Below are positions 9,957-49,797 of a stretch of DNA of 64,000 bases, one piece after another. A program made the position numbers and the translations under genes. The notes under the pieces are model-generated. The model had not been told where the DNA came from. It did not search any database and was given only the letters and a program-made list of their open reading frames with translations. The first letter of the stretch is position 1, and every line of letters begins with the position of its first letter. The DNA comes from an uncultured Actinomycetes bacterium (lineage in GTDB: Bacteria; Actinomycetota; Acidimicrobiia; Spongiisociales; DATADW01). The stretch lies in the NCBI GenBank assembly GCA_963824995.1, contig CAWGRK010000008.1:62001-126000 (forward strand), read 5' to 3'.

Positions 9957-10473
9957 CTACTGGGCATACCTCCGGGCCAGGTCGTCCAGATAGCCGCCCG
10001 CCGCTCTGGCCACATGGTGGCGCCAAAGCTCGACGTGGTCGACGGGGCCCTGGCTTTCGAGCGCCACGATGGTCGGAGCCAGAGCCGCTCGCTGGGCGGC
10101 GATCAGTTCGAGCGGCGATTGTTTCGCCCGCTCGAGTAGCGCCAGTTTGAGCTGGAACTCGATCCGGAGGTCTCTCACATGGCCGACCGGCTCCCCCAGC
10201 CAGCGCCGAAGCCGCTGACGCCCTGCGGGAGTCACTTGGTGGATGATGCGTCGCGGCCCCGAGTCGCCAGGTTCGGTACGAGCCGGCTGGGCCAGGCCCT
10301 CTGTGACGAGCCGATCGAGCGAGCGGTAGGCCTCGGTGGGACGCACGGTGAGGATCCGGCCGAGCGCCCCCATCGGGCCCGAGTTCCTTGGCGATGGCGA
10401 AGCCGTGAGTGGGGTGCTCGGCGAGCACCCCCAACACGGCGTGGTCGGTGACCGATAATCGGGAGCCGGCCAT
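9957..10473 (-). CDS. PadR family transcriptional regulator (frameshift near 10370)
   Basis: N-term HAVLGVLAEHPTHGFAIAKEL in one frame, continuing as YRSLDRLVTEGL..TPAGRQRLRRWL in another. Confidence 0.8.
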
Positions 10474-11266: not shown

Positions 11267-14124
11267 ATGGGTCGTAACCTGAAAGGCGTGATCGTCGGAC
11301 GCCCCGGTCTCAGCGCGGCGATGGTTGGCCGCAGATCCGAATTGGAGCGTTTGCTCGCCATGGTGCCGGTCGACGACGACCCAAGGGTGGCGCTCGTCGC
11401 AGGGGAGGCGGGAGTGGGCAAGACCCGGCTGGTCCGAGAGGTTCGCGCCCGCCTCCCTGAATCCGTCATCATCCTCTCAGGTCAGGCAACTCAGGAGGCG
11501 GCCGGGCGGCCCTTCGAGCTGTTGCTCGAGGCCATAGAACCGTACGTCGCATCGTGGGACGAGCTTCCTGATGAGCTGGAGACACGGGGTAGCGCGGTCC
11601 GGGCTTTGTTGGCGCCTGTGGCACCGCAGCTGGGAGGCGACGACCAGCGCGAGTACTTCCAACAAGAACTGCTCAGGGCAGCGGTCGAGGTGGTACGCCA
11701 GCTCATCCGAGAGAACACCGCCGTCCTCGTGTTCGAAGATCTGCACTGGGGCGATACGGAGAGCGTCAAGGTATTCGGGCGTCTCGGGACCGCTTCCGGC
11801 TTGCGGCTGCTCGCCTTGGGCACCTACCGGTCGGAGCGGCTCAATCGCCGTCACCCGTTGGCTGAACTGCTGGAGCAATTGGAGCGGGACCAATCGTTGC
11901 TCCATATCACGCTGCAGAGGCTGACTGTTGCTGAGGTGGCGGAACTGCTCGCAGGCGCCTACAGAAGGCCGATCCCGATACGGGTCGCGACCGAACTCCA
12001 CCAGCGGACCGGCGGCAACCCGTTCTTCCTCGAGGAACTGGTGACCGCAGCCGGTGACTTGCCGCCCGAAGAGCTACCCGATGTGCCGCTTCCCTGGAAT
12101 CTCAGCGAGGCGGTTCTTCGGCACCTCGACGCGCTCGACCCAGATGAGTTGTCGGTGCTGGAATCGGCCGCGGTGGCTGGTCAACGGTTCTCATTCGACC
12201 TGCTTCAGTCGATGACGGGGCTGGATGAGACCGAGCTCATTGGGATCCTGCGGCGGTTGGTCTACACCGGGCTCCTCGCCGAAGAAGCGCCCGACGTCCT
12301 CGCCTTCCGTCATGCCCTCACCCACGAGTCGGTTGTTGGAAGCCTGCTCGGCCGCCAGCGAAGACGCCTGCACGAGGCGGCTTTCGAGGCATTGCAGCGG
12401 TCGGGGAATGAGGACTACGCCTTGCTCACCTACCACGCCGAGGGCGCCGAACGGTACGACGACATGGTGGATGTCTCCCGCCGAGGTGCGCACCACTACC
12501 TGAGGACCGGCGCCACCCAGGAAGCACTGCGGCTTGCCGAGAGAGCCCTCGCCGAGGCGGGAGAGGACATCGAGCTTCTCGAGGTGGCGTCGCTGGCGGC
12601 GTGGCGCGCGCCGACCGCCTTGACGACGCCGCGGTGTATGCCGGTCGGTGGGAGGCTGCCGCGGTGATGGCAGTCTCCCCTGCGGAGCGATCACGCGCTC
12701 TGCGATTACGGGCCCGTATCGAATTCGACGCCGGCCGACCGTCGGCCCAGTTGCAGTATCTCGAAGAGGCTCTCGGGGCGGTCGCGCCTCTCGGGGAGAC
12801 CGAGGAACTGGCCTGGGTCTACAGCCAGCTTGCCGAGGCCCACATGCTGATGGAGCAATTGGACTCCGCCGTGGATTGGGCAGATCGGTCGCTCGAGCTT
12901 GCCGATCGGGTCGGTTCGGAGGGGGCCAAGGTGCGAGCCTTGGTGAACAAGGGATCGGCGGTGATCGATGGCGATCTGGCTGCGGGCATCGAGTTGCTCG
13001 AGGAAGCGGCAGCTCTCGCCGAGAGCATCGGAGACCACCTCAGCCATGTGAGGGCGATCAACAATGCCCTCATCGGTGGCGTGAGGATCTGGCCGCCGGA
13101 GCGCACCTCAGCAGCCATCGACCGGATGCAGGACGTGGCGGAACGGGCCGGCCTCGACCACTTCGTCACGATGGCTATCGCCGCCCGGGGATATTCGGCG
13201 GAGCTCGATGGAAACCTGGACCTCGCCATCTCCGTCTTCTCCGACCTCAGCTGGGACGAACAGGTTGGCGAGTACGAATCGACGAGGATCCACCTGGCAA
13301 CGCTGCTCTGCGATGGCGACGACCCCGATGGCGCGGCCGCCGTGCTTGACAGGATCGGCGAGCCTGAGGAGCCCTCGAAAAAGTGCTGTTACATCGTCAC
13401 CCGCGTTTACATCGCAGCCCTACGCCGAGACCCCGACGAGGTGAGAGCATTGATGGCCAGATTCGTCGAGGACCCCTCGGTCGCACCGGATCCGGGAGAC
13501 GACGATGCCTACCTGATGGCGCTTCTCGCCCTGAAGGTGGGGGTATCTCCGGCCGAGGTACGTCCACTCCTCGACTCTGTCCCCGACGAGGGAAAGCTTG
13601 CCTTCGATCACGACCCTGCCCTCGAGTGGGCGGTCGAAGGCGCATTGCTTTCTGCGGAGGGCTCGCACGAGGAGGGACTGGCCGCCTACCAGCGAGCGCT
13701 CGGGGATGGGAGGCGTCGCTCTGCCGCCGCCACCGCAGGATTCCGCGTCTCGTTGGCCCACAGCCTGCTGGCGACGGGACAAAAGGCCGAAGCGATCTCG
13801 CAGGCCCGCGAAGCGTGGCGGCTGCTGGAGAACTGGCCGGGATGGTTGGCCGAGGAGACCCTCGCCCTTTTGCGTCGGCTCGGGGTGGGTCAAGAGGTGG
13901 AGGGGCCAAAGACACTCACCTCGCGGGAGCGCGAGGTGGCTGCTCTGTTGGCGGAAGGTATGAGCAACGCTGAGGTCGCCGACCGTCTCTTCATCTCTGT
14001 TCGGACCGCCGCGGTCCATGTATCGCACATCCTCACCAAGCTGGGGATGTCCTCGCGCGCCGAAGTAGCTGCCTGGGCGGTCCGAAATGGCATCGCACCA
14101 GTGACAGACCGAGCAGCAGGATGA
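11267..14124 (+). CDS. LAL-type AAA ATPase / LuxR HTH regulator (frameshift near 12610)
   Basis: MVGRRSEL, GEAGVGKTRL, FEDLHW, TGGNPFFLEEL, FRHAL; C-term LTSREREVA..VHVSHILTKLG in a second frame. Confidence 0.85.
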
Positions 14125-18168: not shown

Positions 18169-19916
18169 ATGACGCTTCCGAGCGGTGTCGTCACGTTTCT
18201 CTTCACAGACGTCGTCGGTAGCTCCACCAAGTGGGACATCGCTGGTGACGTCATGGAGGGCGCGATACGCCGCCACGATGAGATCATCGAGAGGGCGATC
18301 TCATCCCAATCCGGAGAGGTCGTCAAGAAGACTGGGGATGGGTTCATGGCGGTGTTCGCCAACCCAACCGAGGCGGTCTCGGCGGCGGTCGAGTCACAGC
18401 GAACGCTCGGCGCCGAGGCGTGGGAGGCGGCGATCGCCGACTTCGCCGTACGGATCGGCATCCACACCGGATCGGGGCAGTTGGTGAACGGCGACGACTA
18501 CCTCGGTTCCGCACCCAACAAGGCGGCTCGCATCGAGTCCGCGGGGCATGGGGGCCAGATCCTCGTCTCGGCGGCTACCAGGGAGCTGGTTGACGAGGCC
18601 GCAGACCTGGTTCGATTCCGAGACCTCGGTGACCACTATCTCCGCGGACTGAGCCGTCCGGAGCGCTTGTATCAGGTGACAGGCGATGGATTGATCGACG
18701 ACTTCCCGCCGATCAGGACCGAGTCGAAGCCCGAGCGGCCGTCGATCGCCGTGCTCCCCTTCGAGACCATTGGCGACCTCCAACGGGATGCGTTCGCTGA
18801 CGGGCTGGTCGAGGACTTGATCACCGGACTTTCCCGATGCCGCGATCTGTTCGTGATTGCGCGCAACTCGACGTTCGTATACAAGGACTCCCCGGTGGAC
18901 ATCACCACAGTCGCCGCCAAACTCGGCGTTCGCTACGTCCTCGAGGGGAGCGTGCGATGGTCGGGGGAACGGGCGCGCATCACCGCCCAGCTCATCGACG
19001 GGTCGACGGGAGGCCACCTCTGGGCGGAGAAGTACGACCGCGACGTCGAAGACGTGTTCGGCGTTATCGACGAGATCACCGGTGACATCGTGGCCCAGCT
19101 CAGCGGCTACCACGGCATCCTGGTGTTGACCGAGAAGAAGCGGACCGTCGCCCAAGACCCCGGGTCGCTCGGCGACTACGAGACCTACATCGCGGGCTCG
19201 AGCTCAAGCACCGGTTCATGCCGGAAGCCAATGTCGAATCGAGACAGACCCTCCTTCAGGTCCTCGAGCACCGGCCGGCGTTCGCTCGCGCCCATGTAGC
19301 GCTGGCGTGGACGTGGCTGTTCGAGGTGTTTTGGGGATGGAGCGAAACACCAGAGGTCTCGCTCCGCGAGGCGTGGAAGGCGGCCAAACGCGCCGCCGAG
19401 CTCGACGATCTCGACTCCGAAACGCACTGGGTGCTCGGCGAGCTGCACATGGCACAGGGCGAGTACGAGCGCACCGAAGCCGAGTACAGCCGTGCCATCG
19501 AACTCAATCCGAGCCTCGCCGACGTCCGCGCCAACTGGGCTTCCACCGCCAACCGCCTTGGAATGGCCGAAGAGGGGGTCGAGTCGATGGAGCTGGCGAT
19601 GAAACTCAACCCAAACCCCCCGCCCTGGTACACGTGGTTCCACGGCTCCTCGCTGTACGGCGCCCACCACTACCAAGAGGCAGTAGTTGCGCTCCAAGCC
19701 GCCGCGGTGCACACCGTGGTCAGCAGGTTGTACCTCGCTGCCGCCCTGCACCGGTTGGGGAGAGCTGATGAGGCGGGGCTGGCACTTGCCAAGGCCCAGC
19801 AAGATGTCCCCGAGATCACCATCGCCATGCTCGAGCAGATCGAGGCCTACCGTGACCCGGCGGGACAGGCTCACCTGTCGGAACCACTGCGATCTATGGG
19901 ACTACCCGAGTCCTGA
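18169..19916 (+). CDS. Class III adenylate/guanylate cyclase with TolB-like and TPR domains (frameshift near 19195)
   Basis: TFLFTDVVGS, GDGFMAVF, RIGIHTG, NKAARI; PSIAVLPF, VIARNS, HLWAEKYD; TPRs in a second frame. Confidence 0.85.
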
Positions 19917-20014
19917 GCGTCGACGAGGATCTCAGCGAGGACATCGCGCGTAGATCGAGCGATCTGGGCAGAGTCGTCGAGCTGTGGAGGGCTCTAACCT
20001 GGGGTTTTGCTGTG

Positions 20015-20052
20015 GGGCCTGTAGCTCAATTGGTAGAGCAGGGGACTTTTAA
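20015..20052 (+). repeat. tRNA-Lys(UUU) 5' half, copy 1 (att-like junction)
   Basis: 38/38 identical to 27625-27662; ends at anticodon loop CTTTTAA with no 3' half following. Confidence 0.92.
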
Positions 20053-20182
20053 GCCCGTTGGCGTCACCGCTGAGCTAAACCACGTTCTACCAGGCACTTC
20101 GCGCTCGGGCGACCACCGTCTAGGCGCGAATCCCTTGCTCTTGGCCATGGCCAGAAGTCCCTTGCTCTCTGGACTTGGAATC
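20053..20182 (+). repeat. Conserved non-coding arm, copy 1
   Basis: 48-nt block GCCCGTTGGCGT..CTACCAGGCACTTC, then 24 nt, CGCGAATCCCTTGCTCT, 13 nt, AAGTCCCTTGC. Confidence 0.9.
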
Positions 20183-20481
20183 AACGGAAAATTCACGCCA
20201 TCCAATCGGACCGAATTCCGTGGGTTGGACCTGCGGCCGAGAAGTCGATGCCGCCACCCCTGATGAAACAGGGACTCGAGGCGATTGGGTCGTCACACCC
20301 ACCTCCATCGGTGCGGGACACGGATCGCCAAGGGAGCGCCAGCGGACAACGACTGGAGGGAGCCCGTCAAGGCTAGCCAACCTCGACCGCCGTCCGGCTG
20401 AGTCGGACCCCGAAGAGCCGAAGTCTGCGATCCGAATGTGCTCTGCAAGTCGGAACTCGGAACGGGTCTTAGCATCTAGGA

Positions 20482-23356
20482 GTGCCAGGGCGCGAGGATC
20501 ATGATCTGGCCGGGGTCGGGGTTGCTCGCAGGCGATTGCCTGGCGAGGAGTGGACTCGACGGGAGCGCAGCCTGCTTGTCGGCCGTGAGGTCGAGGTCGC
20601 GGTGCTGGCGGACTTTCTCGTGGCTGGGTCGTCAATGCCCCAAGGGCTTGTGATCGACGGTGAGGCGGGGATCGGGAAGACAACGCTCTTCGACGCAACG
20701 TTGACGAAGGCGAGGGAGCACGGTTTTGCCATCTTCTCGTGCCGTCCGGCGGCTGCCGAGGCGGCCTTTTCGTTTGCCGCCCTCGCCGATCTCTTGAGCC
20801 CGGTGTTGCCAGAGGGGCTAGGGCGGTTGCCGGGGCCGCAGCGTCGTGCGCTTGCGGCGGCTTTGTTGCTGGACGAGCTCGAGGGGTCGGCGCCGGATAA
20901 GAGAGCGATCGCGTTCGCCGTGTATCAGCTTCTCCGTGAGCGTGGCGGCTCACCGCTGCTTATTGCGGTGGATGACGTGCAGTGGCTCGATGCGGCGTCG
21001 GCTTCGGTACTTGCGTTCGCGCTTCGGCGGCTGGCGGCGGCACCGGCGGCGATTCTCGTCGCACGCCGAAGCAGCGGCGGCGAACCAGCTCCGCTCGGGC
21101 TCGATCGCACGCTTCCGAGCGAACAGCTGCGGCGGTTGCGGCTCGGCCCGCTGAGTCTCGGCGCGACTCATCGGTTGCTGCGCGAGCGTGTCGGTGTCTC
21201 ATTTCCTCGACCGACGCTTGTCCAGCTTCATGAGACGTCGGGCGGGAATCCGTTCTATGCGCTCGAGCTTGGGCGCGCGCTCGAGCAGTCGGGTGGGCGC
21301 GCGGGCGCCGGTGAGCGGCTGACGGTTGCGACGTCAATCTCCGGTCTCGTCTCGGCTCGCTTGGCGGCGCTGTCGAAGGACGTTCGCGAGGTGCTCGAGC
21401 CGGTTGCGTTACTCAGCCAGCCGACGGTCTCGATCGTCGAGGCCGTGGCATCAGACACCACGACCGTGCTCGGGCGGCTTCGCACCGCGGAGGCTGCGGC
21501 GGTCGTTGATCTCGATGACGAGCGTGTTCGTTTCAGCCACCCCCTTCTGGCTGCATGCGTCGAGGCGGAGCTCGACCCCCGCCGGCGGCGATCGCTCCAC
21601 CGCCGGCTCGCAGAGCTGGTCGGCGATCCCGAGCAGCGAGCGCGGCATCTTGCCCTGGGTGCGAACGGGCCGTCAGGCGAGGTGGCCAAACAACTGGAGA
21701 GCGCCTCGGCGATTGCGGCGCTGCGTGGGGCTTCAGTGGCCGCAGCCGAGCTGGCGGAGCTCTCGGTCTCGCTCACTCCAGGCGATGCCGGCGAGGAGGT
21801 CCTGCGCCGCCGGCAGCTGCTCGCGGCTGACCATCATTATGCGAGCGGGGATGCGGAACGCCCGCGTGCAATCCTCGAGCGGCTCCTCGACCAGCTCCCC
21901 GCCGGTTCCGAACGCGCGAAGGTGTTGCGGCGGCTCGGCGAGTACTCACCGAACGACCTCGAGAAGTCGGAGCGACTTCTCGAGCAGGCGTTCCTCGAGG
22001 CCGCCTCCGATCCTCGGCTGCAGGCGGAGATCGTCACGCCACGAGTGAGTACGGCGGCTCTTCGCCACGGGCCGGCGGCAGCCGTGCAGCTGGCGCGGAA
22101 CTTGGCTCGAGTCGTTGAAGACAGCGGCGATCCTGTCCTGCTCGCCATGTTTCTGGCGGAACTCAGCTTCTCGGAGCTGCTCTCCACTGAAGGTTTGACG
22201 CCGGGAGTGCTCGAGCGGGCGCTCGAGCTCGAGCAGCATGTGGGGCCGCTTCCGTCACCCACCACACCTACCTTGATCGACGGAGTCCGCCTGATGTTCG
22301 CAGACGAGCACACGTCGGCGCGCGAAACCCTGCAGCGGGCGCACGACGCCGCTGTAGCCCGCGGCTCCGAGTCCGGACGGGACCGTGCCTTGCAATTTCT
22401 GACCGTGCTCGAGTGCCGCGCTGGTGATTGGAGACGCGCCGACGAGTATGCCGAGGCAATTGCTCCAGGCGGGGGAACAGTGGGGCCTCGAGCTTGAGGG
22501 CGCGCCGACGCTGTGGCTCCGGGGCCTGGTTGATGCCTACCTCGGCCGCCTCGACCAAGCTCGAGCCCGCGCCACGGAAGGAGTTGCGCGCTCGCGCGCC
22601 TGGAACGAGCAGGCGTTCCTCGCGCGGAACCTCGCCGTGCTCGGCCTGATCGACCTGTTCACCGGCGACTATCCGGCAGCGGCGGAGACGTTGGGTCCGC
22701 TCGTTCGCCGGAGGCAGGAAAGCGGTGCGGGCGAGCCGAGCGGATTCCCGCCCCGGGAGCTCGCGATCGAGGCGCTGGTTGCGGTCGGCGACTTGGACGA
22801 GGCCCGCGTCCAACTCGAATGGCTGGAGGAAGCCGGGCGCCGCCGGGCGACTCTCTGGCCGCTGGCGATGGGGGCGCGCTGCCGGGGTCTCCTCCAAGCT
22901 GCCGAGGGCGACCTCGAAGCGGCGCTGGCAAGCTGCGAGCAAGCGCTGAAGGTGCATGAGCGGATGCCAGTGCCGTTCGAGCACGCTCGCACACTGCTCA
23001 TCTACGGCACGATCCTTCGTCGCGCCAAGCGGCGACATGCAGCAAGGGAGGCGATCGAGGAGGCGCTGTCGATCTTCGAGTCGCTCCCGGCACCGGTCTG
23101 GGCGGAAAAGGCGCGCGCCGAGCATGCCCGTATCGGTGGCCGTGCGGCGGCGGGCGGCGGATTAACGCCGAGCGAGCGGCGGATCGCGGAGGTTGTTGCG
23201 GAGGGCAAGACAAACAAGGAAGCCGCGGCGGCGCTGTTCATCAGCGTCCATACCGTCGAAGACGCCCTGAAACGGATCTACCGCAAGCTCGGAGTCCGTT
23301 CGCGCACCGAGATGTCGCGCCGGCTCAACGGCGACCCGCAGAGCAAAGACCCCTGA
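20482..23356 (+). CDS. LAL-type AAA ATPase / LuxR regulator (frameshift near 22465; start uncertain)
   Basis: LVGREVE, GEAGIGKTTL, VDDVQWLD, GGNPFYALEL, FSHPL; C-term LTPSERRIA..IYRKLGVRSR. Confidence 0.85.
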
Positions 23357-23368
23357 TTTCAGGTCTTT
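23346..23368. promoter_or_regulatory. Imperfect inverted repeat, candidate LuxR operator
   Basis: AAGACCCCTGA-TT-TCAGGTCTT overlapping the regulator stop, upstream of the 23402 operon. Confidence 0.4.
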
Positions 23369-23401
23369 CGGGGTGACCGCTGCTGGCCCAAGCTTCGAGC
23401 T

Positions 23402-23665
23402 ATGCCCGAATACCTGGTCGAGCTCTACTCAGCCGCCGAACCGGACCCGGCTGCGCTCGCCCGCCTCGGCGACGGATCGGCAGTCCGATACCTGCGCTCG
23501 ATCCTGATCCCGAGCGACGAGACATCGCTCCACCTGTTCGCAGCCGAGTCCGCCGAGCGCGTCGCCGAAGCGTTTGAGCAAGCCGGTCTGACGGCAAACC
23601 GGGTCGTGGCAGCCGTGAACCTGCCACCGCCTACGACCGTAGGCAAGCAAAGGAGGAAGACATGA
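23402..23665 (+). CDS. Small DUF4242-like ferredoxin-fold protein
   Basis: MPEYLVELY..VRYLRSILIPSDETSLHLF.AES pattern. Confidence 0.65.
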   Translation: MPEYLVELYSAAEPDPAALARLGDGSAVRYLRSILIPSDETSLHLFAAESAERVAEAFEQAGLTANRVVAAVNLPPPTTVGKQRRKT

Positions 23666-24105
23666 CCAAAATCAAGGCAATCCTCGGATGGCGCAGGGCC
23701 GTCGTGGCAACGGTCGTAAGCGTCGCGACCGGTGCGGCGCAGGCGTCCGCGTCGAGCGCGCCGATCGTGATCACGTACGAGAAAACGTGCATCGAAGCGG
23801 CCGGTACATGCAGTGGGACCACCGGAAACGGCGACACGCTGACGATGTTGGTTACGGGCGGGCGTCCCACCGGCAAGGCCGCCCAGCTGACTATGACCGA
23901 GTCGATCGTCGGAGAGATCACGTTCGCCGCCGTGCTGAGCGGGCATTTCACCCCTGCGGGGTTCATTGTCATGAACGGCACAGTCACAGGCGGCCCGCAT
24001 GCGGGGGCGCAGGTCCACCAGCGAAGCAACCTGACGGGCGTCAGCAGCGACGGAACCACGACGACTTCGGAGGGAGAGCTCCGGATCATGCCAGCGAGCT
24101 CGTGA
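23662..24105 (+). CDS. Secreted hypothetical protein
   Basis: RBS AAGGAGG; signal peptide ending AQA/ASA; ATGA overlap with upstream gene. Confidence 0.7.
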   Translation: MTKIKAILGWRRAVVATVVSVATGAAQASASSAPIVITYEKTCIEAAGTCSGTTGNGDTLTMLVTGGRPTGKAAQLTMTESIVGEITFAAVLSGHFTPAGFIVMNGTVTGGPHAGAQVHQRSNLTGVSSDGTTTTSEGELRIMPASS

Positions 24106-24679
24106 ACCGGGAGCATCGGCGCCACTCGGCCGTGGCCGGGGTTCGTCTTCGTCATTGAGCATGCCCGCGGGTCGACGGACCCGGTCAAAGACCAAGACAC
24201 CCCGGTCTACCCGACAGACCGGGTCATCGACAGAACCTCCTACACCGACCGATACGGGCTCCTGTTCGAGCGCCTGGCGCCGCGAGCGGCTCTACGACGC
24301 TGCCTGCCTCATTAGTACGGAGCGCAACAAGGGCATCCACAGCGAACCCGCACCCGAGGTTTCGACATACACCTGACGGCAGCAAATCTCTGGCCGAGTT
24401 GCCTCATCAAGGGCTTGCTGTAGGAGCCTGCCATAGGAACGGTTGTCGGGTGCCGGGGGAGTGGCAAAGCGGTCGGAGTGGTGACACGTTCCTGCTGAAC
24501 CTGGGTAGGAGTGCCGGTGCCGTTCGTGCCGGTGGGGATAATCGTGACTATCTGCCAGACGGTTGGGACGGTCGAGCCGGTGTAGAGGCGACAAGTAGCC
24601 GTGGTACTACGAGGTCGTGGACTCGGACGATGTTCGTGATCAGCGCCAACAAAGCCCCTGGTAGAGAAGCTAAAACGCC

Positions 24680-24717
24680 GGGCCTGTAGCTCAATTGGTA
24701 GAGCGGGGGACTTTTAA
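24680..24717 (+). repeat. tRNA-Lys(UUU) 5' half, copy 2
   Basis: 37/38 identical to the intact tRNA 5' half; ends at anticodon loop. Confidence 0.92.
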
Positions 24718-24900
24718 GCCCGTTGGCGTTACCGCTGAGCTAGACCGTGTTCTACCAGGCACTTCGCGATCCGTCGACAACCTTCTAGACGCGAATCCCT
24801 TGCTCTAGCGAAGCGGGCAAAGTCCCTTGCGCTTGGGTGCTTGGAATCCATTGCTCCTGCCCTCTGACCGGAGTCACGGTTGTGCTGGAGGTTGGAACCA
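24718..24900 (+). repeat. Conserved non-coding arm, copy 2
   Basis: Same blocks and spacing as copy 1, plus GTTGTGCTGGAGGTTGGAACC (24879-24899) shared with copy 3. Confidence 0.9.
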
Positions 24901-25011
24901 ACCGAGTGTCGCCGAGGATCAGGAGCTCAGCGATCCGAGAGCCTGAGTAGCTGAACGCCCCCGACCAGGTTCATCTCGGCGCGGCGCTCCTCATGATCCG
25001 TCGGACAGGGA

Positions 25012-25464
25012 TCAATCACCGATGCCGCGTGCCATCAACACTGCGAACGTCGGGACCAGCACGAGGATCGCCAACTGCAGGTTGATCATCCTGCGAGCCG
25101 ACCCAACCACTTGGTCCGACGGCAGGGCCGACGGGTCTTCGTCGAGGGCCTTGCGCCAGCGGGCGTATCGGATCGTGGGCATGATCGACAGCAGCGCGAC
25201 CGCCACGAACGCCGCCATCTTCAACCAGAACGTAGTGCTCTCGAGATAGAACTCGGCGGGCTTGGCGCCCCAGATGACACGCGCCACTCCCGCGATGATC
25301 ACCGCCACTGCGACGACGCCGTATGCGGCGTCGACCCGCCCCAGCCAGCGGATGTCAGCAGCTGCCATTCCCCGCCGCACAAGGGCCCACTCCGCGGCGA
25401 GCACTGCCACGAGGCTGAACACAGCGAGATGATGAGCTATGGCGAGCCAAGCGTCGGTTGTCAT
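25012..25464 (-). CDS. DUF2214 family membrane protein
   Basis: AIAHHL, DAAYG, GAKPAEFY, FWLKM, LSIMPTI, MARGIG; RBS AGGAGG. Confidence 0.88.
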   Translation of the reverse strand: MTTDAWLAIAHHLAVFSLVAVLAAEWALVRRGMAAADIRWLGRVDAAYGVVAVAVIIAGVARVIWGAKPAEFYLESTTFWLKMAAFVAVALLSIMPTIRYARWRKALDEDPSALPSDQVVGSARRMINLQLAILVLVPTFAVLMARGIGD

Positions 25465-26493
25465 TTGCGACCTCCTATTCGTCGACGTCAGGTCGTCCTC
25501 TGGACGCCTACGCCGTTTGGATCAACCCGACGGCAAGCGTGATGAGTGCGGCGGCAATGAGCAGCGCGCCTGTCCGCGTGAGGTTGGTGCCAGCCGAGGG
25601 CCCGTCGGACCGCCGTCCTCAACGGCTGGGAGCTGCGTGGCGGCGAGCCAACACAGGTACACCCCTGGCGCAGAACACCTGACCGTGGGCCACATCTGCA
25701 CATAGGCGACGCCAGCGGAGATGTCCAGCTCGCCGCCGACCCCGATGAGAGCGCGAAACTGCAAGCCGATGAACCCCACTCACGTAACCCCCTTTCCGAG
25801 GCCAGTGTCGCCGTTACAAACTGGGGCCTCTTCCGTGCGAGGGAATGTCAGCACCTCTCACATCCTGGGAAACGCCAAGAAATGACCTCTGACCAGGTAA
25901 ACGCGCCTCACAGCACTTGTGGGCAATACTTGGCCTTCGCATCTTCTCCGTGCGCCCGAGCGCGCCATCCGATTGAGAACGATTCTCAACCTGTAGCTCC
26001 TATATTTTGCGACCTGCGCACACCGCGTCCAGCGAGCAGAGGGGGTCGCACCAGCAGTGGTGCCCGCACCCTCGCTCGCCCCGTACTCTCTCCTACTGCC
26101 TGAATCACGAAGAGCACGCTGACGATGGCGAGACCGGCGGCTGAAACGAAGCAAACGATGGCGCCGACAAGGCCTGGCTCGGCCTCGAAGCCGAATCAGT
26201 GCGGACCTCATAGAACCTCCCACGCCGATCTCGGGTCAACCTACGCCGTCAATATCTCCCGAGCCGTTCTCCGAGGTCCGCCCTTTGTGGTTGGCTGACG
26301 CGGTTGCTAGCGACGCGGCGCACGTGTCCGAACCACAGCGCTCAGGCGTTGATTTGTTAGCTCACCTTGGGCTTCATGGTCGAAGCCTCCAGGCAAGCAG
26401 AGCCATCGCGGCGTTGCGGGCCGCAGATTCCTGCCAACACCTGCCCTGATCGGGGCTGTCGTCACCCCCGAGTCTCATGCTTTTCGACCACTG

Positions 26494-26502
26494 TGCTAAC
26501 TT
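26494..26502 (+). promoter_or_regulatory. Extended -10 promoter candidate upstream of tRNA half copy 3
   Basis: TG-C-TAACTT matches TGnTAnnnT, about 50 nt upstream of 26555. Confidence 0.4.
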
Positions 26503-26554
26503 CGCGGCAAGGATGGCTGGACGCTGAAGCGCCTGGTAGTCGGCCATTTTTTGC

Positions 26555-26591
26555 GGGTCCGTAGCTCAAAGGCAGAGCGGGGGACTTTTAA
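26555..26591 (+). repeat. tRNA-Lys(UUU) 5' half, copy 3 (divergent allele)
   Basis: GGGTCCG TAGCTCAAAGGCAGAGC GGGGGA CTTTTAA; different acceptor strand and D-loop, but still pairs with the resident 3' strand CGGGCCC. Confidence 0.88.
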
Positions 26592-26782
26592 GCCCGTTGG
26601 CGTTACCGCTGAGCTAAACCGCGTTCTACCAGGCACTTCTCGGTCAGTCGACGTCCGTCCATGCGCGAATCCCTTGCTCTACCGATGGGCGTGAAATCCC
26701 TGCGCTTGGGTCTGAGTGTCGACTGCACCGCACTTTGACCGGGGCCGCGTGCCAGCAAGTAGTTGTGCTGAAGGTTGGAACC
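26592..26782 (+). repeat. Conserved non-coding arm, copy 3
   Basis: 46/48 identical to each other copy in the first block; same 24-nt and 13-nt spacers. Confidence 0.9.
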
Positions 26783-26875
26783 GACATGGTCGTCGGTGTC
26801 GTCGGAACGGAGTGAGACCGCAGCTGGTGCTGACTATCGCGTGGCGGTGACCCTTCGTCCCAGCAATACGTTTGT

Positions 26876-27238
26876 GTGACGATGGCCAACAGACGGGTGG
26901 CCGGCGGTGTGCTGGTCGTGTTGATGGCTTCGGCTTGCACATCCACGGCCAGCTCTGACACGGCCACCAGCGTCGAAGAGTCACCGCCGCCTTCTACATC
27001 CGTGACGAGCTCCTCCTCGCCCGAGGCTTCCTCGGATCGACTAAAGGCGGCTACCGGCGAGATTGGCGGTCCAGGCTGTGAGCCTTCGTCCCCTGTGGTT
27101 GCCTGGGGCTACGGCCTCGCCGAGTCGGTGGCAACCTCGGCGGACCTCCACTGTATGGGCGCTCCTCTCCACCCTGTCGCCCCTCAGACCGGAGCGGAGG
27201 TCAAGATCGTGTGGGTCACGCTGCCACGGCGGCTTTAA
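26876..27238 (+). CDS. Putative lipoprotein (possibly truncated)
   Basis: Signal peptide with MASAC lipobox-like site and Ser/Thr-rich linker. Confidence 0.45.
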   Translation: MTMANRRVAGGVLVVLMASACTSTASSDTATSVEESPPPSTSVTSSSSPEASSDRLKAATGEIGGPGCEPSSPVVAWGYGLAESVATSADLHCMGAPLHPVAPQTGAEVKIVWVTLPRRL

Positions 27239-27303
27239 ACGTGAGATATGCTGCGAGGCCTTCAAAGGCCGTCGCTTCGGCGCAGTGAACGTGGAGGGGA
27301 CGA

Positions 27304-27585
27304 ATGGCGATCAAGTCAATCGTCGAAATGAAGGCGAAGCCCGGAAGGCGCGACGAGCTGTTGAGCACGCTGCAGCAGATGTCAGCCGTCGATGCGCCGG
27401 GCTTCATCGCCGCGGAGCACTACCGCAACGTCGAGGATGAAGACACCGTCATCGGTATCTACGACTGGAAGTCGAACGAGGAGCGTGTGGCCTGGTCACA
27501 GTCGCTCGACCCCGGTACGCGGGAACAGTTGCTGGAAGTGCTCGCAACGCCCATGCGCATCGTTCTGGCTGATCACATTGAATAG
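27304..27585 (+). CDS. Antibiotic biosynthesis monooxygenase (ABM) family protein
   Basis: EMKAKPGRRDEL, APGFI, IYDWKS; RBS GGAGGGG. Confidence 0.8.
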   Translation: MAIKSIVEMKAKPGRRDELLSTLQQMSAVDAPGFIAAEHYRNVEDEDTVIGIYDWKSNEERVAWSQSLDPGTREQLLEVLATPMRIVLADHIE

Positions 27586-27624
27586 ACACGACGGCACTGT
27601 CCCTTGTAGATAAGCCGAAACGCC

Positions 27625-27697
27625 GGGCCTGTAGCTCAATTGGTAGAGCAGGGGACTTTTAATCCCAAGGTCGTGGGTTCGATTCCCACCGGGCCCA
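27625..27697 (+). tRNA. tRNA-Lys(UUU)
   Basis: Full cloverleaf: GGGCCTG/CGGGCCC acceptor, anticodon loop CTTTTAA, T-arm GTGGG-TTCGATT-CCCAC; CCA not encoded. Confidence 0.97.
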
Positions 27698-27908
27698 CTC
27701 CCCTGACCAGGCACTTCTACCCGATGCAACCACTCCGGCATCGCCTCCGAGGCGTCACGGGCGACACTCTCGACGACAAAGACAGTCTCGCCACCTGGAT
27801 TGGGCGATCTGGCGTCGCCGCTGCTGGCGTAGCGAATGGTGCGATCCGTCAGGCGATCACCGGATTGCGACGACGCACCGCAGGCAGAACTGGTGCATCA
27901 TGTGCCAC

Positions 27909-36859: not shown

Positions 36860-38285
36860 TCAAGTCGGAATTGGCACCGGGGCGAACAGGACCAACCGAT
36901 CCCGGATCGACGCTTCCAACAACTCGGCGCGGATCGTGGTCCCCTCGACGAGCCCCGGTCCTTGGATGCGAGCGTGGACCGCCGGCTCCGCCAGCTGAAC
37001 CCTTCCCACGGCGTTGGCGGGGTCGTAGTCCACCACCACGCCCTCGAACACTTCACCGACCCGATGCCTCAGTACCGCTGCCTCGACCAGATCGAGGCAC
37101 TCGATGGCGTAGCGGCTGGCACGGCCCGCCCCTCGGGCCATGATGTCGGGAAGGCCGGTCATGCCGTGGAGGACCCACTCCGCCGGATCGGTGCCGGCCT
37201 CGATGGCCAGACAGGTCTCGGCGGCGTATCGGTCCACCAGCCGTCGCAGCGGGGCGGTGACATGGGCATAGAGCGATGCCACCGCGGCGTGAGGTCTTGG
37301 AGGCTGCTTCGGTCCGATCACCTGGTATCCGGCGCCGCGGAACAGGCTGGAAGCCTCGGCCAGAACCGCCGCCTCGGCGGGCTTGGCGGCGTCGAGCGAG
37401 CTGACGAAAGCTCCGTAGCCAAGCTCGTCGTGGCCACTCGACACCAAGCGCCTTGGCTGCGTGCCGCAACCGAATCACATCGCTCTCGGGGGCGGGTGAC
37501 AGGGTGCGGAGAACCCCCACACCTGCCTCCGCCATCATCCGCCCCGCCGCCATACCGGTCGCCAGCGATAGCTGTGCGTTCCACCGTTCCACATCGGGCA
37601 CCTCGCGGAATTCCAGCCGCCACCCACCATCGGCCGGCACCACCTGCTGCTCCGGCGCCGGGAGCGAGACACCCCCCCGGGCCGTCTCTCGCTCGATCCG
37701 GAGTGGGCCCAATTCGGCCAGGGGAGCCAACGATTCCGGCATTTGACCGGCCTCGAAATCCGCCTGGACGGATCGATATTCGAGTTGAGCACGGCTACGG
37801 ACCACAGCACGGCGCACCGCCGCTGCCTTCATCTCACCATCGGGATCGAAGGCAAGCTCCCAGACCGCGGCGGGGCGATCTTGGCCGGCCAGGAGCGAGC
37901 CGTTCCCTTCCGACAGGCTGAAAGGGTGGAGCGGGGTGCGCTTGTCGGGGGCGTAGAGGGTCATGGCGCGGACGCGGGTCTCTTTGTCGAGGGCACCTCC
38001 CGGGCTGACGAAGGCGGCGACGTCGGCCACCGCATACCGAAGGAGAAAACCGCTTGGCGTGCGCTCGAGGTGGATGGCCTGGTCGAGGTCCATCGACCCG
38101 GCCGGGTCCAGGGTCACGAATGGGATGTCGGTGAGATCCGTCTCCGGCATCCGAGGCGGTCTCTCGGCCTCCTCTTGTGCCTCGGCTGGATAGTGCTCGG
38201 GAACCTCGAGTTCGTCCCGAATCGCCTCCAACCCGGCCCGCACCTCCTCGTCGGGCGCGACAAACCGAAGCACTCGTTGCGGCAT
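36860..38285 (-). CDS. RNB-domain exoribonuclease (RNase II/R family; frameshift near 37435)
   Basis: TLDPAGSMDLDQA, YAVADVA, TLYAPD; YAHVTAPLRRLVDR in a second frame. Confidence 0.85.
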
Positions 38286-38318
38286 CGCCTCATGCTACGG
38301 ATCGGGTGATAGACAAAC

Positions 38319-38577: not shown

Positions 38578-40365
38578 ATGGCCGACACGTACACAGCCCC
38601 CGTACGGGACATGCTCTTCGTCCTCGAGACCGTGTGCGATCTCGAGGGTTTGAGCCGCCTCGAGGGGTACGAACATGCCGATCCGGACACGGTGAGGGGA
38701 CTCCTCGAGGAAGCGGGGAGGTTCTTCTCCGAGGTGATCGCACCGCTCAACAGAGTGGGCGACCAGCAGAGATCGAGGCTCGTCGAGGGGAACGTCGTCA
38801 CACCCGATGGTTTCAAAGAGGCCTACCGCCGGTTCACGGACGCAGGGTGGCCCGGTGCACACATGCCCGCCGAGTGGGGCGGAGGCGGACTGCCTATGGC
38901 GGTGGGGATCGCAATCCAGGAAATGGTCACCTCGGCGAGCATGGCGTTCTCGCTCTGCCCATTGCTGACCCAGGCGGGGATCGAGGCGCTGGTGGCCCAC
39001 GGGACCCCGGAGCAGCAGGAGACATATCTGAGCAAGCTCGTGACCGGCGAATGGGTGGGGACGATGCACCTCACCGAGCCGCAGGCCGGCTCCGACGTGG
39101 GTGCTCTCACCACCAGGGCGGTCCGCCAGGACGACGGGACCTACCGGCTCTCTGGCACCAAGATCTTCATCACCTGGGGCGACCACGACATGACCGACAA
39201 CATCGTGCATCTCGTGCTCGCCCGCACGCCCGGTGCCGCTCCGGGGACAAAGGGGATCTCGCTGTTCCTGGTCCCCAAGTTCCTGGTGAATGCCGACGGC
39301 AGCCTCGGCGAGCGCAACGACATCAAGGTGGTGTCGTTGGAGCACAAGATGGGCATCCACGCCAGCCCCACGTGCGTGATGAGCTTTGGAGACGAGGGCG
39401 AAGGCGCTGTCGGCTACCTCATTGGAGAAGAGCAGCAGGGGATGCGGTTCATGTTCACCACGATGAACAATGCCCGGCTGGGCGTGGGGACGGAAGGTGT
39501 TGCCATCGCCGAACGGGCCTACCAGCAGGCGCTCACTTTCAGCCAGGAGCGCAGGCAGGGCCGGGCGACCGGAGCGACCGAGAGCTCGTTCATCATCGAG
39601 CACCCCGACGTACGGAGGATGCTGCTCACCCAGAAATCGCTGATCGAGGCGATGCGGGCTCTCCTCTATCACGAGGCTTCGCTGCTCGACCTGGCCGAGC
39701 GGCATCCCGACACCGATGTCTCCGGGGCGAGCGCCGAGAGGGCGGACCTCTTCACCCCGGTGGCGAAAGCGTGGTGCACCGATCTCGGGGTGGAACTCAC
39801 TTCGCTGGCTCTCCAGGTGCATGGCGGCATGGGGTATGTGGAGGAGACCGGGGTCGCCCAACACATGCGTGACAGCAGGATCGCCCCCATCTACGAGGGT
39901 ACGAACGGCATCCAGGCAATCGATCTGGTCGGCCGCAAGCTCCCGATGAGGGATGGTGGGGTCATCGCCGACCTACTCGACGACGTGGGGACGACGGTCT
40001 CCGACCTGCGGGAAGCCGGGATGTCGAGTGAGGCCGAGGCGCTCGATTCCGCCCTCTCCTCGGTGAAGGTCGCGACCTCCTGGCTGCTGACCCGACGACC
40101 GGAAGCCCCCGACGACGCGCTCGCCGGCGCTACCCCTTACCTACGGATGCTCGGCTTCACCATCGGAGGATGGCTGCTCGCTCGTGAGGCGCTGGCTCTT
40201 GGTGAGCGCGAGGGCGAAGACAGTGGTTGGGTCGATGCCAAGACGGCGACCTTCTCCTTCTACGCCACACAGATGCTGCCCCAGGTAATGGGGCTGTTCC
40301 CATCGGTGGTTGCGGGCGCCTCTCCGCTCTTCTCGATCGAGCCCAAGTACATGGCAGGTGGGTGA
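38578..40365 (+). CDS. Acyl-CoA dehydrogenase
   Basis: GTMHLTEPQAGSD, GTKIFIT, EHKMGIHASPT, QVHGGMG, IYEGTNGIQ. Confidence 0.93.
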   Translation: MADTYTAPVRDMLFVLETVCDLEGLSRLEGYEHADPDTVRGLLEEAGRFFSEVIAPLNRVGDQQRSRLVEGNVVTPDGFKEAYRRFTDAGWPGAHMPAEWGGGGLPMAVGIAIQEMVTSASMAFSLCPLLTQAGIEALVAHGTPEQQETYLSKLVTGEWVGTMHLTEPQAGSDVGALTTRAVRQDDGTYRLSGTKIFITWGDHDMTDNIVHLVLARTPGAAPGTKGISLFLVPKFLVNADGSLGERNDIKVVSLEHKMGIHASPTCVMSFGDEGEGAVGYLIGEEQQGMRFMFTTMNNARLGVGTEGVAIAERAYQQALTFSQERRQGRATGATESSFIIEHPDVRRMLLTQKSLIEAMRALLYHEASLLDLAERHPDTDVSGASAERADLFTPVAKAWCTDLGVELTSLALQVHGGMGYVEETGVAQHMRDSRIAPIYEGTNGIQAIDLVGRKLPMRDGGVIADLLDDVGTTVSDLREAGMSSEAEALDSALSSVKVATSWLLTRRPEAPDDALAGATPYLRMLGFTIGGWLLAREALALGEREGEDSGWVDAKTATFSFYATQMLPQVMGLFPSVVAGASPLFSIEPKYMAGG

Positions 40366-40378
40366 CGGGTCACCTGGG

Positions 40379-41147
40379 ATGCAACTGACAGGCGCCGTCG
40401 CCGTCGTCACCGGTGGCGGTGGCGGCATAGGTGCCGCTCTCGTCCGGCGCTTCGCTTCAGAGGGAGCCGCCGGGATCGTGGTCGGCGACATCGACATCGG
40501 CGCCGCCAAAGCCGTTGCCGAGGACATTGGAGCGGTGGTGGTGGCGGTGGAGGCCGACGCCGAAATCGAGGATGACACGGTACGTCTCCTCGAGACCGCC
40601 GAAGAGCGGTTCGGGCCGGTCGATCTCTTCTGCGCCAACGCCGGAATATTCATTCCCGGTGGTCCCGAAGTGGCCGACGAGGCTTGGGACCGAATCTGGC
40701 GGGTCAACGTCTTGTCCCATGTCCATGCCGCCCGCCACTACGTGCCGCGGCGTGGTGGCACGCGGTGCCGGCTATCTGCTCCACACCGCCTCCGCGGCGG
40801 GTCTCCTGTCCAACCTCGGCGCTGCCCCTTACGCCGTCACCAAGCATGCGGTAGTTGCTCTGGCGGAGTGGTTGTCGATGACATTCGGCGACCGGGGATT
40901 GAAGGTCTCCTGCCTGTGCCCGATGGGGGTGCGAACCGCCATGCTCGACTTCGACACCAGCAACTATGTCCGACCCAACGCAATCGATCCGGCCGACCTG
41001 GCCGAGGCCGTAGCCGAGGGATTGGCCGACGAGCGCTTCCTCATCCTCCCCCACCCCGAGGTCGCCGGTTATGCCGTTCACCGCGCCAGCGACCCCGACG
41101 GGTGGTTGAAGGCGATGCGGCGCCTGCAAGCGGAGATCTTCGGCTGA
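40379..41147 (+). CDS. SDR family oxidoreductase (frameshift near 40748)
   Basis: [17 protein letters not shown] catalytic motif in a second frame. Confidence 0.85.
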
Positions 41148-41178
41148 CGCGCCATACCCCGTTTAGCGTGTACGCAAC

Positions 41179-41646
41179 GTGACAGGCGACCAGGACCTCC
41201 CCGAGGACGAGCTCCCCCCACCGGTGGACTTCGGCTTGCCGCCGACGGTGCCAGCCCAACCGCTACCGGAGCGCCCTGTCGTCCTCCGCCGCTGTCAGAC
41301 CGGGCGGGTGATCGGTGGAGTGGCGTGCGGAATCGGCCGGTGGCTGGGAATCGACGCCCTCTGGATCCGGATCATCTTTCTCGTGCTCCTGTTCGGGGGC
41401 GGTTCGGGGCTGCTGCTCTACATCATCGGGTGGATCGCCATCCCCGAAGAGACGGCAGGTGAGCCGGTCGGCGAGTCACCGCACGCCTCGTCCTATCGGA
41501 CGCAGGTTTTCATCGGCGGCGCCTTGGTTGCTCTGGGCAGCTGGCTGCTCCTCACCCGTCTGTTCCCGCAGATCTCGGGGTACATCGGACCGATCGTGGT
41601 GATCGTGTTCGGTCTGATGCTCCTGCTCGGCGGGCGCAGCCGGTGA
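41179..41646 (+). CDS. PspC domain-containing membrane protein
   Basis: LRR..RVIGGVACGIG..IRI.F..YIIGWIAIPE. Confidence 0.85.
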   Translation: MTGDQDLPEDELPPPVDFGLPPTVPAQPLPERPVVLRRCQTGRVIGGVACGIGRWLGIDALWIRIIFLVLLFGGGSGLLLYIIGWIAIPEETAGEPVGESPHASSYRTQVFIGGALVALGSWLLLTRLFPQISGYIGPIVVIVFGLMLLLGGRSR

Positions 41647-48852: not shown

Positions 48853-48930
48853 GGGGGCGTGGTGAAGCCTGGAGTTCACGCCGGCCTGTCAAGCCGGAGG
48901 TCGCGGGTTCAAATCCCGTCGTCCCCGCCA
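48853..48930 (+). tRNA. tRNA-Asp(GUC)
   Basis: Cloverleaf; CCGGC-CTGTCAA-GCCGG; T-arm GCGGG-TTCAAAT-CCCGT; CCA encoded. Confidence 0.96.
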
Positions 48931-48939
48931 CCGAGCACC

Positions 48940-49015
48940 GGCCAGGTAGCTCAGTTGGCAGAGCACAGGTCTGAAAAACCTGGGGTCGGCAGTTCGATTC
49001 TGCCCCTGGCCACCA
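48940..49015 (+). tRNA. tRNA-Phe(GAA)
   Basis: Cloverleaf; CAGGT-CTGAAAA-ACCTG; GGCCAGG/CCTGGCC acceptor; CCA encoded. Confidence 0.96.
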
Positions 49016-49104
49016 TTCATTTCCCCTGGTCACGCTCCTGCCCGCACCAACTCGTGTCGCTGGAGGCGATCGGTCGAGAGCAGTGCCCCGTAGACTGGGC
49101 CAGG

Positions 49105-49797
49105 ATGTCGGGCATGCCGGTTCGTGTCGTCCTCCAACGTGGTCCGAAGGGCAAGAAGTTCGTCGCGTTCGCCATCGACTGGCCGGGCTGGAGTCGCGGC
49201 GCGAAGACCGCCGATGCGGCCGTGGAGACGCTCGAGACGTACCGCGAGCGCTACCGACCGGTCGCGGCCGGCGCCGGTCTCGGCGACGAGTTCGAGGCGG
49301 CCGGACCCCTTGATGTCTTCGAGGACCAAGTCGGGACACCTTCGGTCGATTTCTGGGGCATCTCGTTCTCTCCTTCGGAAACGGAGCATGGGCCGATGAC
49401 CGAGGACGAGCTCGAGCGCAAGATCGCGCTGCTCCGGTCCTGCTGGGCGTACTTCGACGCGGTTGCGGGGCGAGTCTCGGCGGAGATGCGCAAGGGGCCG
49501 CGTGGTGGCGGACGGGACCGAGACCGGATAATCCGTCACACGATCCGCACCGAGAGCGAGGACTTCGCCAAGCAGGTCGGCCTCCGCATCCCCGAGGAGG
49601 GGGCGCTGGCGCCAGGCGCCCTACAGGAGTATCGCGAGGACTACATCCTGGCGATCCGAGCGTACGAACGCGGCGAGGTGGAGAAGCGCATGCGGTCGTG
49701 GACGCTCCCTTTCCTGATTCGACACTCGGCCTACCACACGATGGACCACGCCTGGGAGATGGAGGACAAAGACCTCTCGACCGAGGTCCAGACCTAG
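49105..49797 (+). CDS. Conserved hypothetical protein (HicB-like N-term, DinB-like C-term)
   Basis: AFAIDWPGWSR, RKGPRGGGRDR, RHSAYHTMDHAWEMED. Confidence 0.7.
   Translation: MSGMPVRVVLQRGPKGKKFVAFAIDWPGWSRGAKTADAAVETLETYRERYRPVAAGAGLGDEFEAAGPLDVFEDQVGTPSVDFWGISFSPSETEHGPMTEDELERKIALLRSCWAYFDAVAGRVSAEMRKGPRGGGRDRDRIIRHTIRTESEDFAKQVGLRIPEEGALAPGALQEYREDYILAIRAYERGEVEKRMRSWTLPFLIRHSAYHTMDHAWEMEDKDLSTEVQT

Follow-up and report, generated by a model that had tools for sequence, protein, structure and literature searches.

This study concerns a tRNA-Lys(UUU) locus of an uncultured Actinomycetes bacterium (assembly GCA_963824995.1), at which truncated copies of the tRNA gene delimit a tandem array of three small gene-bearing units. 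The locus lies in a stretch of 64,000 nucleotides of contig CAWGRK010000008.1 (positions 62,001 to 126,000 of the forward strand), which we call the window; all positions are counted from its first letter. The window is high in GC (65.6%) and carries genes typical of Actinomycetes, among them those for a mycothiol S-transferase, an F420-dependent reductase, MMPL and LigD. ARAGORN locates a single tRNA-Lys(ttt) at 27625-27698. The three units are found upstream of this gene, and their GC content of 61.6-66.6% is close to that of the flanks (63.9-66.5%).

BLAST of the tRNA against the window and direct reading identified three copies of tRNA positions 1-38 ahead of the intact gene, all on the same strand (Table 1). 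In every copy, identity to the tRNA ends after CTTTTAA, at which point G replaces T and another CCC is shared. The same search returned no 3′ half of tRNA-Lys elsewhere in the window. Successive sites are separated by 4665, 1874 and 1071 bp, and the units enclosed between them are numbered 1 to 3 in the direction of the intact gene. The copies differ from each other by about 10% and thus do not represent a collapsed or duplicated assembly repeat. Copy 3 departs from the tRNA at six positions: two are in the acceptor stem, where their partners in the intact gene, G69 and G67, can still pair with them, and the others are found in the D-loop and at position 26. Since pairing with the 3′ strand is retained in the acceptor stem, copy 3 looks like a usable allele of another lineage rather than a product of random decay, an argument of modest statistical weight.

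The DNA upstream of the copies follows a pattern of its own. The interval 24656-24721, which covers copy 2, and the interval 27601-27666, which covers the corresponding part of the intact gene, are identical at 60 of 66 positions, including a 24-nt segment directly upstream of both; copy 3 has part of this segment. The flank of copy 1 is unlike the others, with 70% identity over 19991-20056. This pattern thus corresponds to attL at copy 1, junctions at copies 2 and 3 and attR at the intact gene, as serial integration predicts. We infer from the flanks that copy 1 retains the original chromosomal upstream sequence and that the intact tRNA is preceded by imported DNA. The promoter of the working tRNA is probably element-borne; a scan for sigma-70 consensus promoters returned 0 sites, which is uninformative for an actinomycete.

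On its other side, each 5′ half is joined, where the anticodon loop ends, to a non-coding arm some 140-220 nt long. Over their first 48 nt, the arms are identical pairwise at 44-46 of 48 positions; conservation is good over about 140 nt and fades into a weaker similarity up to about 220 nt. A profile was built with nhmmer on five arms, three from the window and two from a related metagenome-assembled genome (MAG) that is described below. Searched against the window and the MAG locus, it returned only these five arms and the 5′ half of the intact gene, and no further or degenerate arms.

Within the arms, a 14-nt motif recurs. It has 9 matches in the window against 0.33 expected, a number that was reached in none of 100 shuffles, and 6 matches in the MAG locus against 0.01 expected. 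The motif is an inverted repeat of tRNA positions 21-34, i.e., the 3′ strand of the D-stem, the 5′ strand of the anticodon stem and the start of the loop. Each 5′ half holds one inverted copy and each arm two direct copies, which are located 93 and 120 nt from the tRNA copy and 27 nt apart, start to start, in those arms where both were matched. Judged by this arrangement, the motif copies are probably binding sites of a recombinase, and the arm holds two extra inverted copies of the presumed left half-site of the core. A second element, the 12-mer ACCAGGCACTTC, has 4 exact matches in the window, where 0.19 would be expected. It lies 36 nt past the anticodon loop in every arm and occurs once more in the 3′ flank of the intact tRNA. 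This hints at an origin of the arm in a tRNA 3′ region; alternatively, the 12-mer could be an added binding site.

Single-stranded DNA folds of the 5′ half plus arm reached z-scores of -1.76, -0.58 and +0.55 for the three sites and were no better than shuffles; 96-nt folds of the sites gave 0.09, -0.33 and 0.89. A folded, attC-like site is thus not supported.

Table 1. Features of the tRNA-Lys array, in the order of their position in the window (ORF, open reading frame; aa, amino acids; GC3, GC content at third codon positions; HTH, helix-turn-helix).
Feature	Position	Strand	Remarks
Copy 1, tRNA 5′ half	20015-20052	+	38/38 identical; attL-type core, left end of array
Unit 1 arm (P′-type)	20053-20260	+	12-mer 20089-20100; 14-nt motifs 20128-20141, 20155-20168
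LAL-type regulator, unit 1	20482-23356	+	two overlapping frames; frame change near 22420
AAA_16 STAND ATPase frame, unit 1	20482-22497	+	Pfam E 2.9e-17
TPR + GerE/LuxR HTH frame, unit 1	22424-23356	+	Pfam E 3.9e-13
SCO4226-like small protein, unit 1	23402-23665	+	PF14026, E 1.6e-5, 25.4 bits, under the 28.5-bit cut-off
147-aa protein, unit 1	23662-24105	+	N-terminal signal-peptide-like segment; translation, GC3 frame plot
Upstream (P-type) segment, right end of unit 1	24656-24679	+	in common with 27601-27624
Copy 2, tRNA 5′ half	24680-24717	+	37/38 identical; junction of units 1 and 2
Unit 2 arm	24718-24900	+	12-mer 24754-24765; motifs 24793-24806, 24820-24833
DUF2214 membrane protein, unit 2	25012-25464	-	Pfam E 2e-46
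Gene-poor 1.07-kb stretch, tRNA-proximal end of unit 2	25465-26554	.	no family in frames of at least 45 aa
Copy 3, tRNA 5′ half	26555-26591	+	32/38 identical, one 1-nt gap; divergent allele; junction of units 2 and 3
Unit 3 arm	26592-26800	+	12-mer 26628-26639; motif 26667-26680; second motif near 26697 with 1-nt deletion
120-aa lipoprotein-like ORF, unit 3	26876-27238	+	hydrophobic N-terminus ending ...ASAC; no family
ABM-domain protein, unit 3	27304-27585	+	PF03992, E 1.7e-9
Upstream (P-type) segment of unit 3	27601-27624	+	directly 5′ of the working tRNA gene
Intact tRNA-Lys(UUU)	27625-27698	+	attR-type end of array; ARAGORN tRNA-Lys(ttt), Rfam 75 bits
12-mer ACCAGGCACTTC	27706-27717	+	8 nt past the tRNA; also in every arm

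According to Pfam, the cargo is unrelated across the units. A comparison of 9 cargo ORFs with PADLOC and NCBIfam revealed no defence or mobility family; the TPR-GerE protein had matches at the level of the HTH only, and the STAND ATPase a weak partial match. The 147-aa protein of unit 1 (23662-24105) has no match in Pfam, NCBIfam or PADLOC. Directly past its stop and in the same frame, positions 24106-24312 (+) show a sub-threshold similarity to the XhoI restriction endonuclease family (23.4 bits against a cut-off of 25, and 20.2 bits in the read-through frame), which we treat as unproven.

The tRNA-proximal DNA of units 1 and 2 is gene-poor over 0.55 kb and 1.07 kb, respectively. In unit 2, this stretch (25465-26554) is lower in GC, with values of 0.55-0.62 around 25750-25900. 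It contains no convincing ORF and has no match in Pfam, PHROGs or Rfam, nor do its six read-through frames, in which stops were replaced by X. Unit 3 is compact, with about 75 nt from the arm to the first gene and 15 nt from the last stop to the upstream segment. With its 1071 bp, the presumably newest unit is also the smallest.

No recombinase family was found in the window. Pfam scans of the window ORFs gave 0/34 and 0/48. Within the array, 103 of the 107 stop-to-stop frames of at least 45 aa were searched at E<=1 with no recombinase match (0/103), the other four being among the Pfam-scanned ORFs. Outside the array, the result was 0/150 for further frames of at least 130 aa, the last 7 of 157 such frames being part of another scan (0/16). 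A search of 114 frames against PHROGs (0/114) and one of the read-through frames of the two gene-poor stretches (0/12) gave no recombinase either. Excisionase, transposase and transfer families likewise had no match among these ORFs and frames. The recombinase-free flanks comprise 20 kb upstream and 36 kb downstream of the array. An enzyme acting on the sites would most probably be of the tyrosine type, as is the rule for tRNA targets (PMC4383910).

The initial annotation of this locus had described three 5′ halves ending at the end of the anticodon loop, the same interval lengths, a common arm of the same identity over its first 48 nt, an intact tRNA-Lys closing the series, unrelated cargo in the three intervals, and no recombinase ORF in them or in the window. 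The BLAST search and direct reading, remeasurement, alignments, ARAGORN and Rfam, Pfam, and the Pfam and PHROGs scans, respectively, agree with this description. It had further held that decayed integrase genes in the intervals would turn the units into ordinary eroded islands; no recognizable remnant of such a gene appeared, read-through frames included.

Relatives were sought with the exact 24-nt junction pattern in one genome per species, covering 185,579 species representatives. The only match is the 43-kb contig CAVTEU010000002.1 of an uncultured Actinomycetes MAG. It contains unit 1 at 97.2% identity between two sites that are 4678 bp apart, and the contig ends inside the first of these. 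The first arm of the MAG and the arm of unit 1 are 99% identical over 208 nt. Window and MAG agree at about 98% throughout unit 1, its upstream segment and the adjoining 5′ half, with 1-2 substitutions per 100 nt up to 24705. Identity falls between 24705 and 24730 and amounts to about 79% from 24730 onwards (24 substitutions in 113 nt). Past the second arm, the MAG encodes an LPG-synthase-like protein, a Na/H exchanger, a sulfatase, a lectin-like protein and an ion channel.

Because identity falls at the anticodon loop and gives way to a different arm variant and different cargo, the alignment sets the unit border at the loop and assigns the arm to the downstream unit. This one comparator places the turnover of the tRNA-proximal side after the divergence of about 2%, with the tRNA-distal unit remaining common to both genomes. 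A common distal unit together with a different proximal neighbor is the polarity expected of serial insertion beside the tRNA. As a separate observation, tRNA positions 1-25 recur in the MAG locus (L001) at 10046-10074 (-) as an additional, partial tandem copy of 24 nt ahead of the second 5′ half; this may have arisen by an aberrant exchange or through faulty assembly.

We lean towards reading the array as three non-autonomous, att-bounded units at the 5′ side of tRNA-Lys(UUU), similar to cis-mobilizable elements (CIMEs), with a recombinase encoded elsewhere. The units of 4665, 1874 and 1071 bp would have been laid down serially by site-specific recombination, with the crossover in the anticodon stem-loop. 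Each unit would consist of an arm (about 140-220 nt), its cargo, an upstream segment of at least 24 nt and tRNA positions 1-38, and, when circularized, would present one attP-like site of about 200-280 bp. Strand exchange would take place in or next to the 7-nt anticodon loop, carried out by a recombinase that recognizes the tRNA-Lys stem-loop, and probably the 14-nt motif in particular, which is present once in the tRNA (21-34) and twice, inverted, in each arm. Every insertion would fuse the resident 5′ half to the incoming arm, leaving behind a dead pseudo-tRNA, and would restore a working tRNA by joining the 5′ half that comes in to the 3′ half in the chromosome. Since the tRNA would be rebuilt on the right, the oldest unit would be located farthest from it and the newest would adjoin it, and the present tRNA would be transcribed from element-borne upstream DNA. 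The recombinase may have been supplied by a helper element that came with the units and then left (cis-mobilization), or by a gene acting in trans. What the sequence itself documents is the repeats with their borders, the motif layout, the lack of a recombinase in the window and a different tRNA-proximal neighbor in one relative; that recombination took place, in which order, that the motif is bound and that the units are mobile at present is inferred. This layout matches the published accounts of CIME accretion (PMC5704250) and of tRNA-proximal island growth (10.1101/2020.12.28.424599), as far as the cited sections go.

Parts of this model were already contained in the initial annotation, namely the crossover in the anticodon loop, the 5′ half and arm as contributions of the incoming DNA, and the position of the newest unit beside the tRNA. 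Its integration of free circles in trans is unproven; cis-mobilization with a departed helper, or erosion, would give the same picture. It had also expected related genomes to differ in their content at this locus and to carry a recombinase gene next to the same arm. The tRNA-proximal content does differ in the one MAG; no recombinase near the arm was found in the window or in the 9.9 kb of the MAG contig past its second arm. The designation of the array as integron-like is not supported, as it fails all integron features that were tested: an integrase beside the array and a folded hairpin site are lacking, and the cargo occupies both strands. Its novelty had been overrated as well: islands with 5′ fragments, tandem accretion and integrase-less att-flanked elements have all been described before.

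Several points weigh against our reading. The occurrence of the 12-mer in both the arms and the tRNA 3′ flank is not accounted for by the model. The arm has no match in phage and plasmid collections (blastn, E<=0.01). Neither a tRNA nor a recombinase is present in the 9.9 kb of the MAG contig past the second arm, and the genes in this neighborhood are ordinary-looking membrane and envelope genes. With a single comparator, the different neighbor in the MAG could also be the result of a rearrangement, a misjoin or a large island. Furthermore, an integrase gene could once have been located in the gene-poor DNA of units 1 and 2 and be fully decayed now. A further weak point is the apparently low constraint on the cargo of unit 1, whose LAL gene is frame-broken: between window and MAG, three genes have a dN/dS (the ratio of nonsynonymous to synonymous substitution rates) of 0.58-0.66 and one has 0.25, computed from 5-30 substitutions each, which is too few for a decision.

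The last two points are those on which the main rival explanation draws. It holds that three autonomous islands with their own integrases inserted in turn and were then trimmed in place by deletions, so that the units are dead stumps today. We regard this as rather unlikely. Integrase-less att-flanked DNA most commonly arises by erosion, according to the cited sections of a review of IMEs (integrative and mobilizable elements; PMC5704250) and to the tycheposon model, and the gene-poor stretches 24106-24655 and 25465-26554 could be leftovers of lost genes. Such decay is opposed by the lack of any recombinase signal, including the read-through frames, and by the complete arm and upstream segment that all three units have retained. 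Gradual erosion in place is disfavored by the newest unit being the smallest and the most compact, nearly without spare DNA. The tRNA-proximal content, finally, is unlike that of the relative although unit 1 has diverged by only about 2%, which implies recent activity.

Known cis-mobilization also accounts for the facts that would speak for a dedicated, integron-like capture, in which integrase-free circles are taken up in trans by a recombinase on a permanent chromosomal platform. These facts are compact units of about 1-5 kb with one complete site each, an ordered array, the recombinase-free flanks on both sides, and a layout of binding motifs that is kept in 5/5 arms. A platform integrase is not seen in the window, the sites do not fold as single strands, and the cargo, found on both strands, comprises regulators that have signals of their own. 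The exact junction in one other genome among the species representatives gives no sign of a widespread system. We therefore judge a platform of this kind improbable. In its extended form, some actinomycetes would possess circles of 1-5 kb with an attP of about 250 bp, captured singly at a tRNA by a recombinase encoded elsewhere, a proposal we consider speculative and doubtful. The attP of such a system would combine the 5′ half of tRNA-Lys and its promoter with an arm in which the recombinase half-site is present twice. Each capture would exchange an essential tRNA gene's promoter and 5′ half, and an ordered, fast-turnover array that is functionally integron-like would build up.

The possibility that single-unit strain variants were chained by the assembler through their common repeat of 5′ half and arm appears very remote. 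The repeats are short, at about 180-260 nt, and diverge by about 10%, unit 1 is followed by an arm and not by a tRNA 3′ half in two assemblies, and copy 1 has an upstream flank of its own, as a real left end should. What would fit an artefact is the error-prone state of both assemblies: many genes of the window, several housekeeping genes among them, are frame-broken, window and MAG differ by 15 small indel events in 4.7 kb, both being indel-rich, and the MAG contig ends inside copy 1. Hardly credible at all is a function of the repeats as tRNA-like RNA genes or leaders, or as split, intron-bearing or duplicated tRNA halves. It is true that copies 1 and 2 give end-to-end alignments with the tRNA model of Rfam (26.6 and 26.5 bits), with CAGGC of the arm as acceptor strand. 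These scores are under the threshold of 29 bits, copy 3 reaches 20.2 bits, and the changed acceptor bases of copy 3 find no compensation in its arm. As only the intact tRNA passes the threshold, a tRNA-like RNA was rejected; with no 3′ half in the remainder of the window, a split, intron-bearing or duplicated tRNA was rejected as well. The folds, no better than shuffles, and the mixed orientation of the cargo likewise argue against an RNA function.

Ordered arrays of small units that lack a recombinase of their own, with the newest unit beside the active site, are known from integrons and from Xer-dependent modules, i.e., integrative mobile elements exploiting Xer (IMEX) and dif modules. The array described here resembles them in its order and in its small units without own recombinase. 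It differs from integrons by the absence of an adjacent integrase and of a folded attC-like site, and by the mixed orientation of its genes. No intI-type integrase with an attI was found beside the array, nor any recombinase in the whole 64-kb window. The units do not conform to the pattern of largely promoterless, uniformly oriented cassettes served by a common promoter, as the DUF2214 gene is on the opposite strand and unit 1 has its own regulator.

CIMEs, i.e., integrase-less att-flanked elements, have been reported in tandem arrays, together with cis-mobilization in tandems of a CIME and an integrative and conjugative element (ICE) (PMC5704250). Our units share with them the attL/attR-type bounds, the lack of integration and transfer genes, the tandem position at a tRNA gene and the presumed need for the recombinase of another element. 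Every unit is bounded by an arm on the left and by the upstream segment plus 5′ half on the right, and Pfam, PHROGs, NCBIfam and PADLOC revealed no genes for integration or transfer. The CIMEs in the sections cited here belong to a known parent ICE or IME and are located at the 3′ end of their target, whereas our units occupy the 5′ side, are very small (1.07-4.7 kb), stand three in a row and have no autonomous partner present. As for a parent with the same attachment site, the search yielded one contig with no recombinase in its inspected part, and no match among phages and plasmids.

Genomic islands of Prochlorococcus grow beside tRNA genes, with partial tRNAs as separators and most of the variation in the proximal part, as outlined in the cited part of the tycheposon study (10.1101/2020.12.28.424599). 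Older material that is pushed away, separators made of partial tRNAs and a variability that is highest next to the tRNA are features shared with our locus; the separators are present here, as is tRNA-proximal variability in one comparator. In contrast, the islands described there hold integrase-bearing elements and fragmented integrases, none of which are detectable here. The hallmark integrase and replication modules are absent from the window. Our host is an actinomycete, and full arms are found at every border.

Among the 3919 tRNA/tmRNA islands of the Islander data set, 159 have a 5′ fragment, 2083 sites are centred on the anticodon, and arrays of at least three units account for 4, going by the cited part of the paper (PMC4383910). 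The likeness to our locus consists in an intact gene with an upstream 5′ fragment of the same orientation and a break at the anticodon loop, and the Islander signature of an intact tRNA gene plus a displaced end fragment of the same orientation on the correct side is indeed found here. Islander, however, demands an internal integrase, present in 0/3 of our units, and a length of 2-200 kb, which 2/3 fall short of. A tyrosine integrase was found inside none of the units with Pfam, PHROGs or the read-through frames, and the units of 1874 and 1071 bp are too short. Since the Islander filters, as laid out in the cited sections (PMC4383910), discard candidates that lack an integrase or are smaller than 2 kb, arrays like this one are invisible to tools that map tRNA islands.

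Use of a tRNA 5′ half as attB is known from the pTN3-like archaeal integrases (PMC8371274). Those described in the cited part belong to archaeal plasmids with their own integrase, and there is no evidence of kinship to the units analyzed here. The same source, citing Williams 2002, states that recombinant tRNA genes of bacteria keep their original promoter with very few exceptions; the present tRNA-Lys locus would be one such exception. With respect to site layout only, a parallel exists to the TnpI/IRS system of Tn4430, in which a core of inverted recombinase-binding motifs is accompanied by two direct accessory motifs (PMC2847244, section cited). In both cases, a motif core has two direct copies to one side. 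IRS is a transposon resolution site used by a known enzyme, whereas here a tRNA anticodon stem-loop forms the core, with the accessory copies at distances of 93 and 120 nt. What is unusual about our locus is the combination of three very small units, full sites of about 200-280 bp, no trace of a recombinase, the position at the 5′ side and the half-site layout. On the whole, it looks like an unusually tidy case of the known pile-up of mobile DNA at tRNA genes rather than a new system.

If the units move with or via a helper recombinase, very small packets of accessory genes would enter actinomycete chromosomes at the 5′ side of a tRNA gene, and control of the tRNA promoter would pass to the DNA that comes in. 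In that case, the conserved layout of the 14-nt motif would be a handle to find the enzyme and to search other genomes. If, on the other hand, the units are dead stumps, the locus would be an ordinary, though tidy, scar.

Some further observations concern the surroundings of the array. A cyclase-TPR gene (18169-19916) stops about 100 nt ahead of copy 1. An ATPase-TPR-LuxR gene is found not only in unit 1 (20482-23356) but also at 11267-14124, the neighborhood being rich in such regulators. Five genes of the window are spread over two overlapping frames (11267-14124, 18169-19916, 20482-23356, 36860-38294 and 40289-41179); their products are two LAL regulators, a cyclase-TPR protein, an RNase II-type exonuclease and a short-chain dehydrogenase. 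Taken together with the small indel events that separate window and MAG, these split frames suggest indel errors of the assemblies rather than true pseudogenes. Further downstream, a pair of tRNA-Asp and tRNA-Phe genes (48853-49797 region) is followed by an ORF of 255 aa (49030-49797) with good coding statistics, for which Pfam contains no family at E<=1. Near the left end of the window, a 608-aa protein (566-2392, -) combines a TIM barrel similar to AP-endonuclease-2/xylose isomerase with a LigD primase-polymerase domain.

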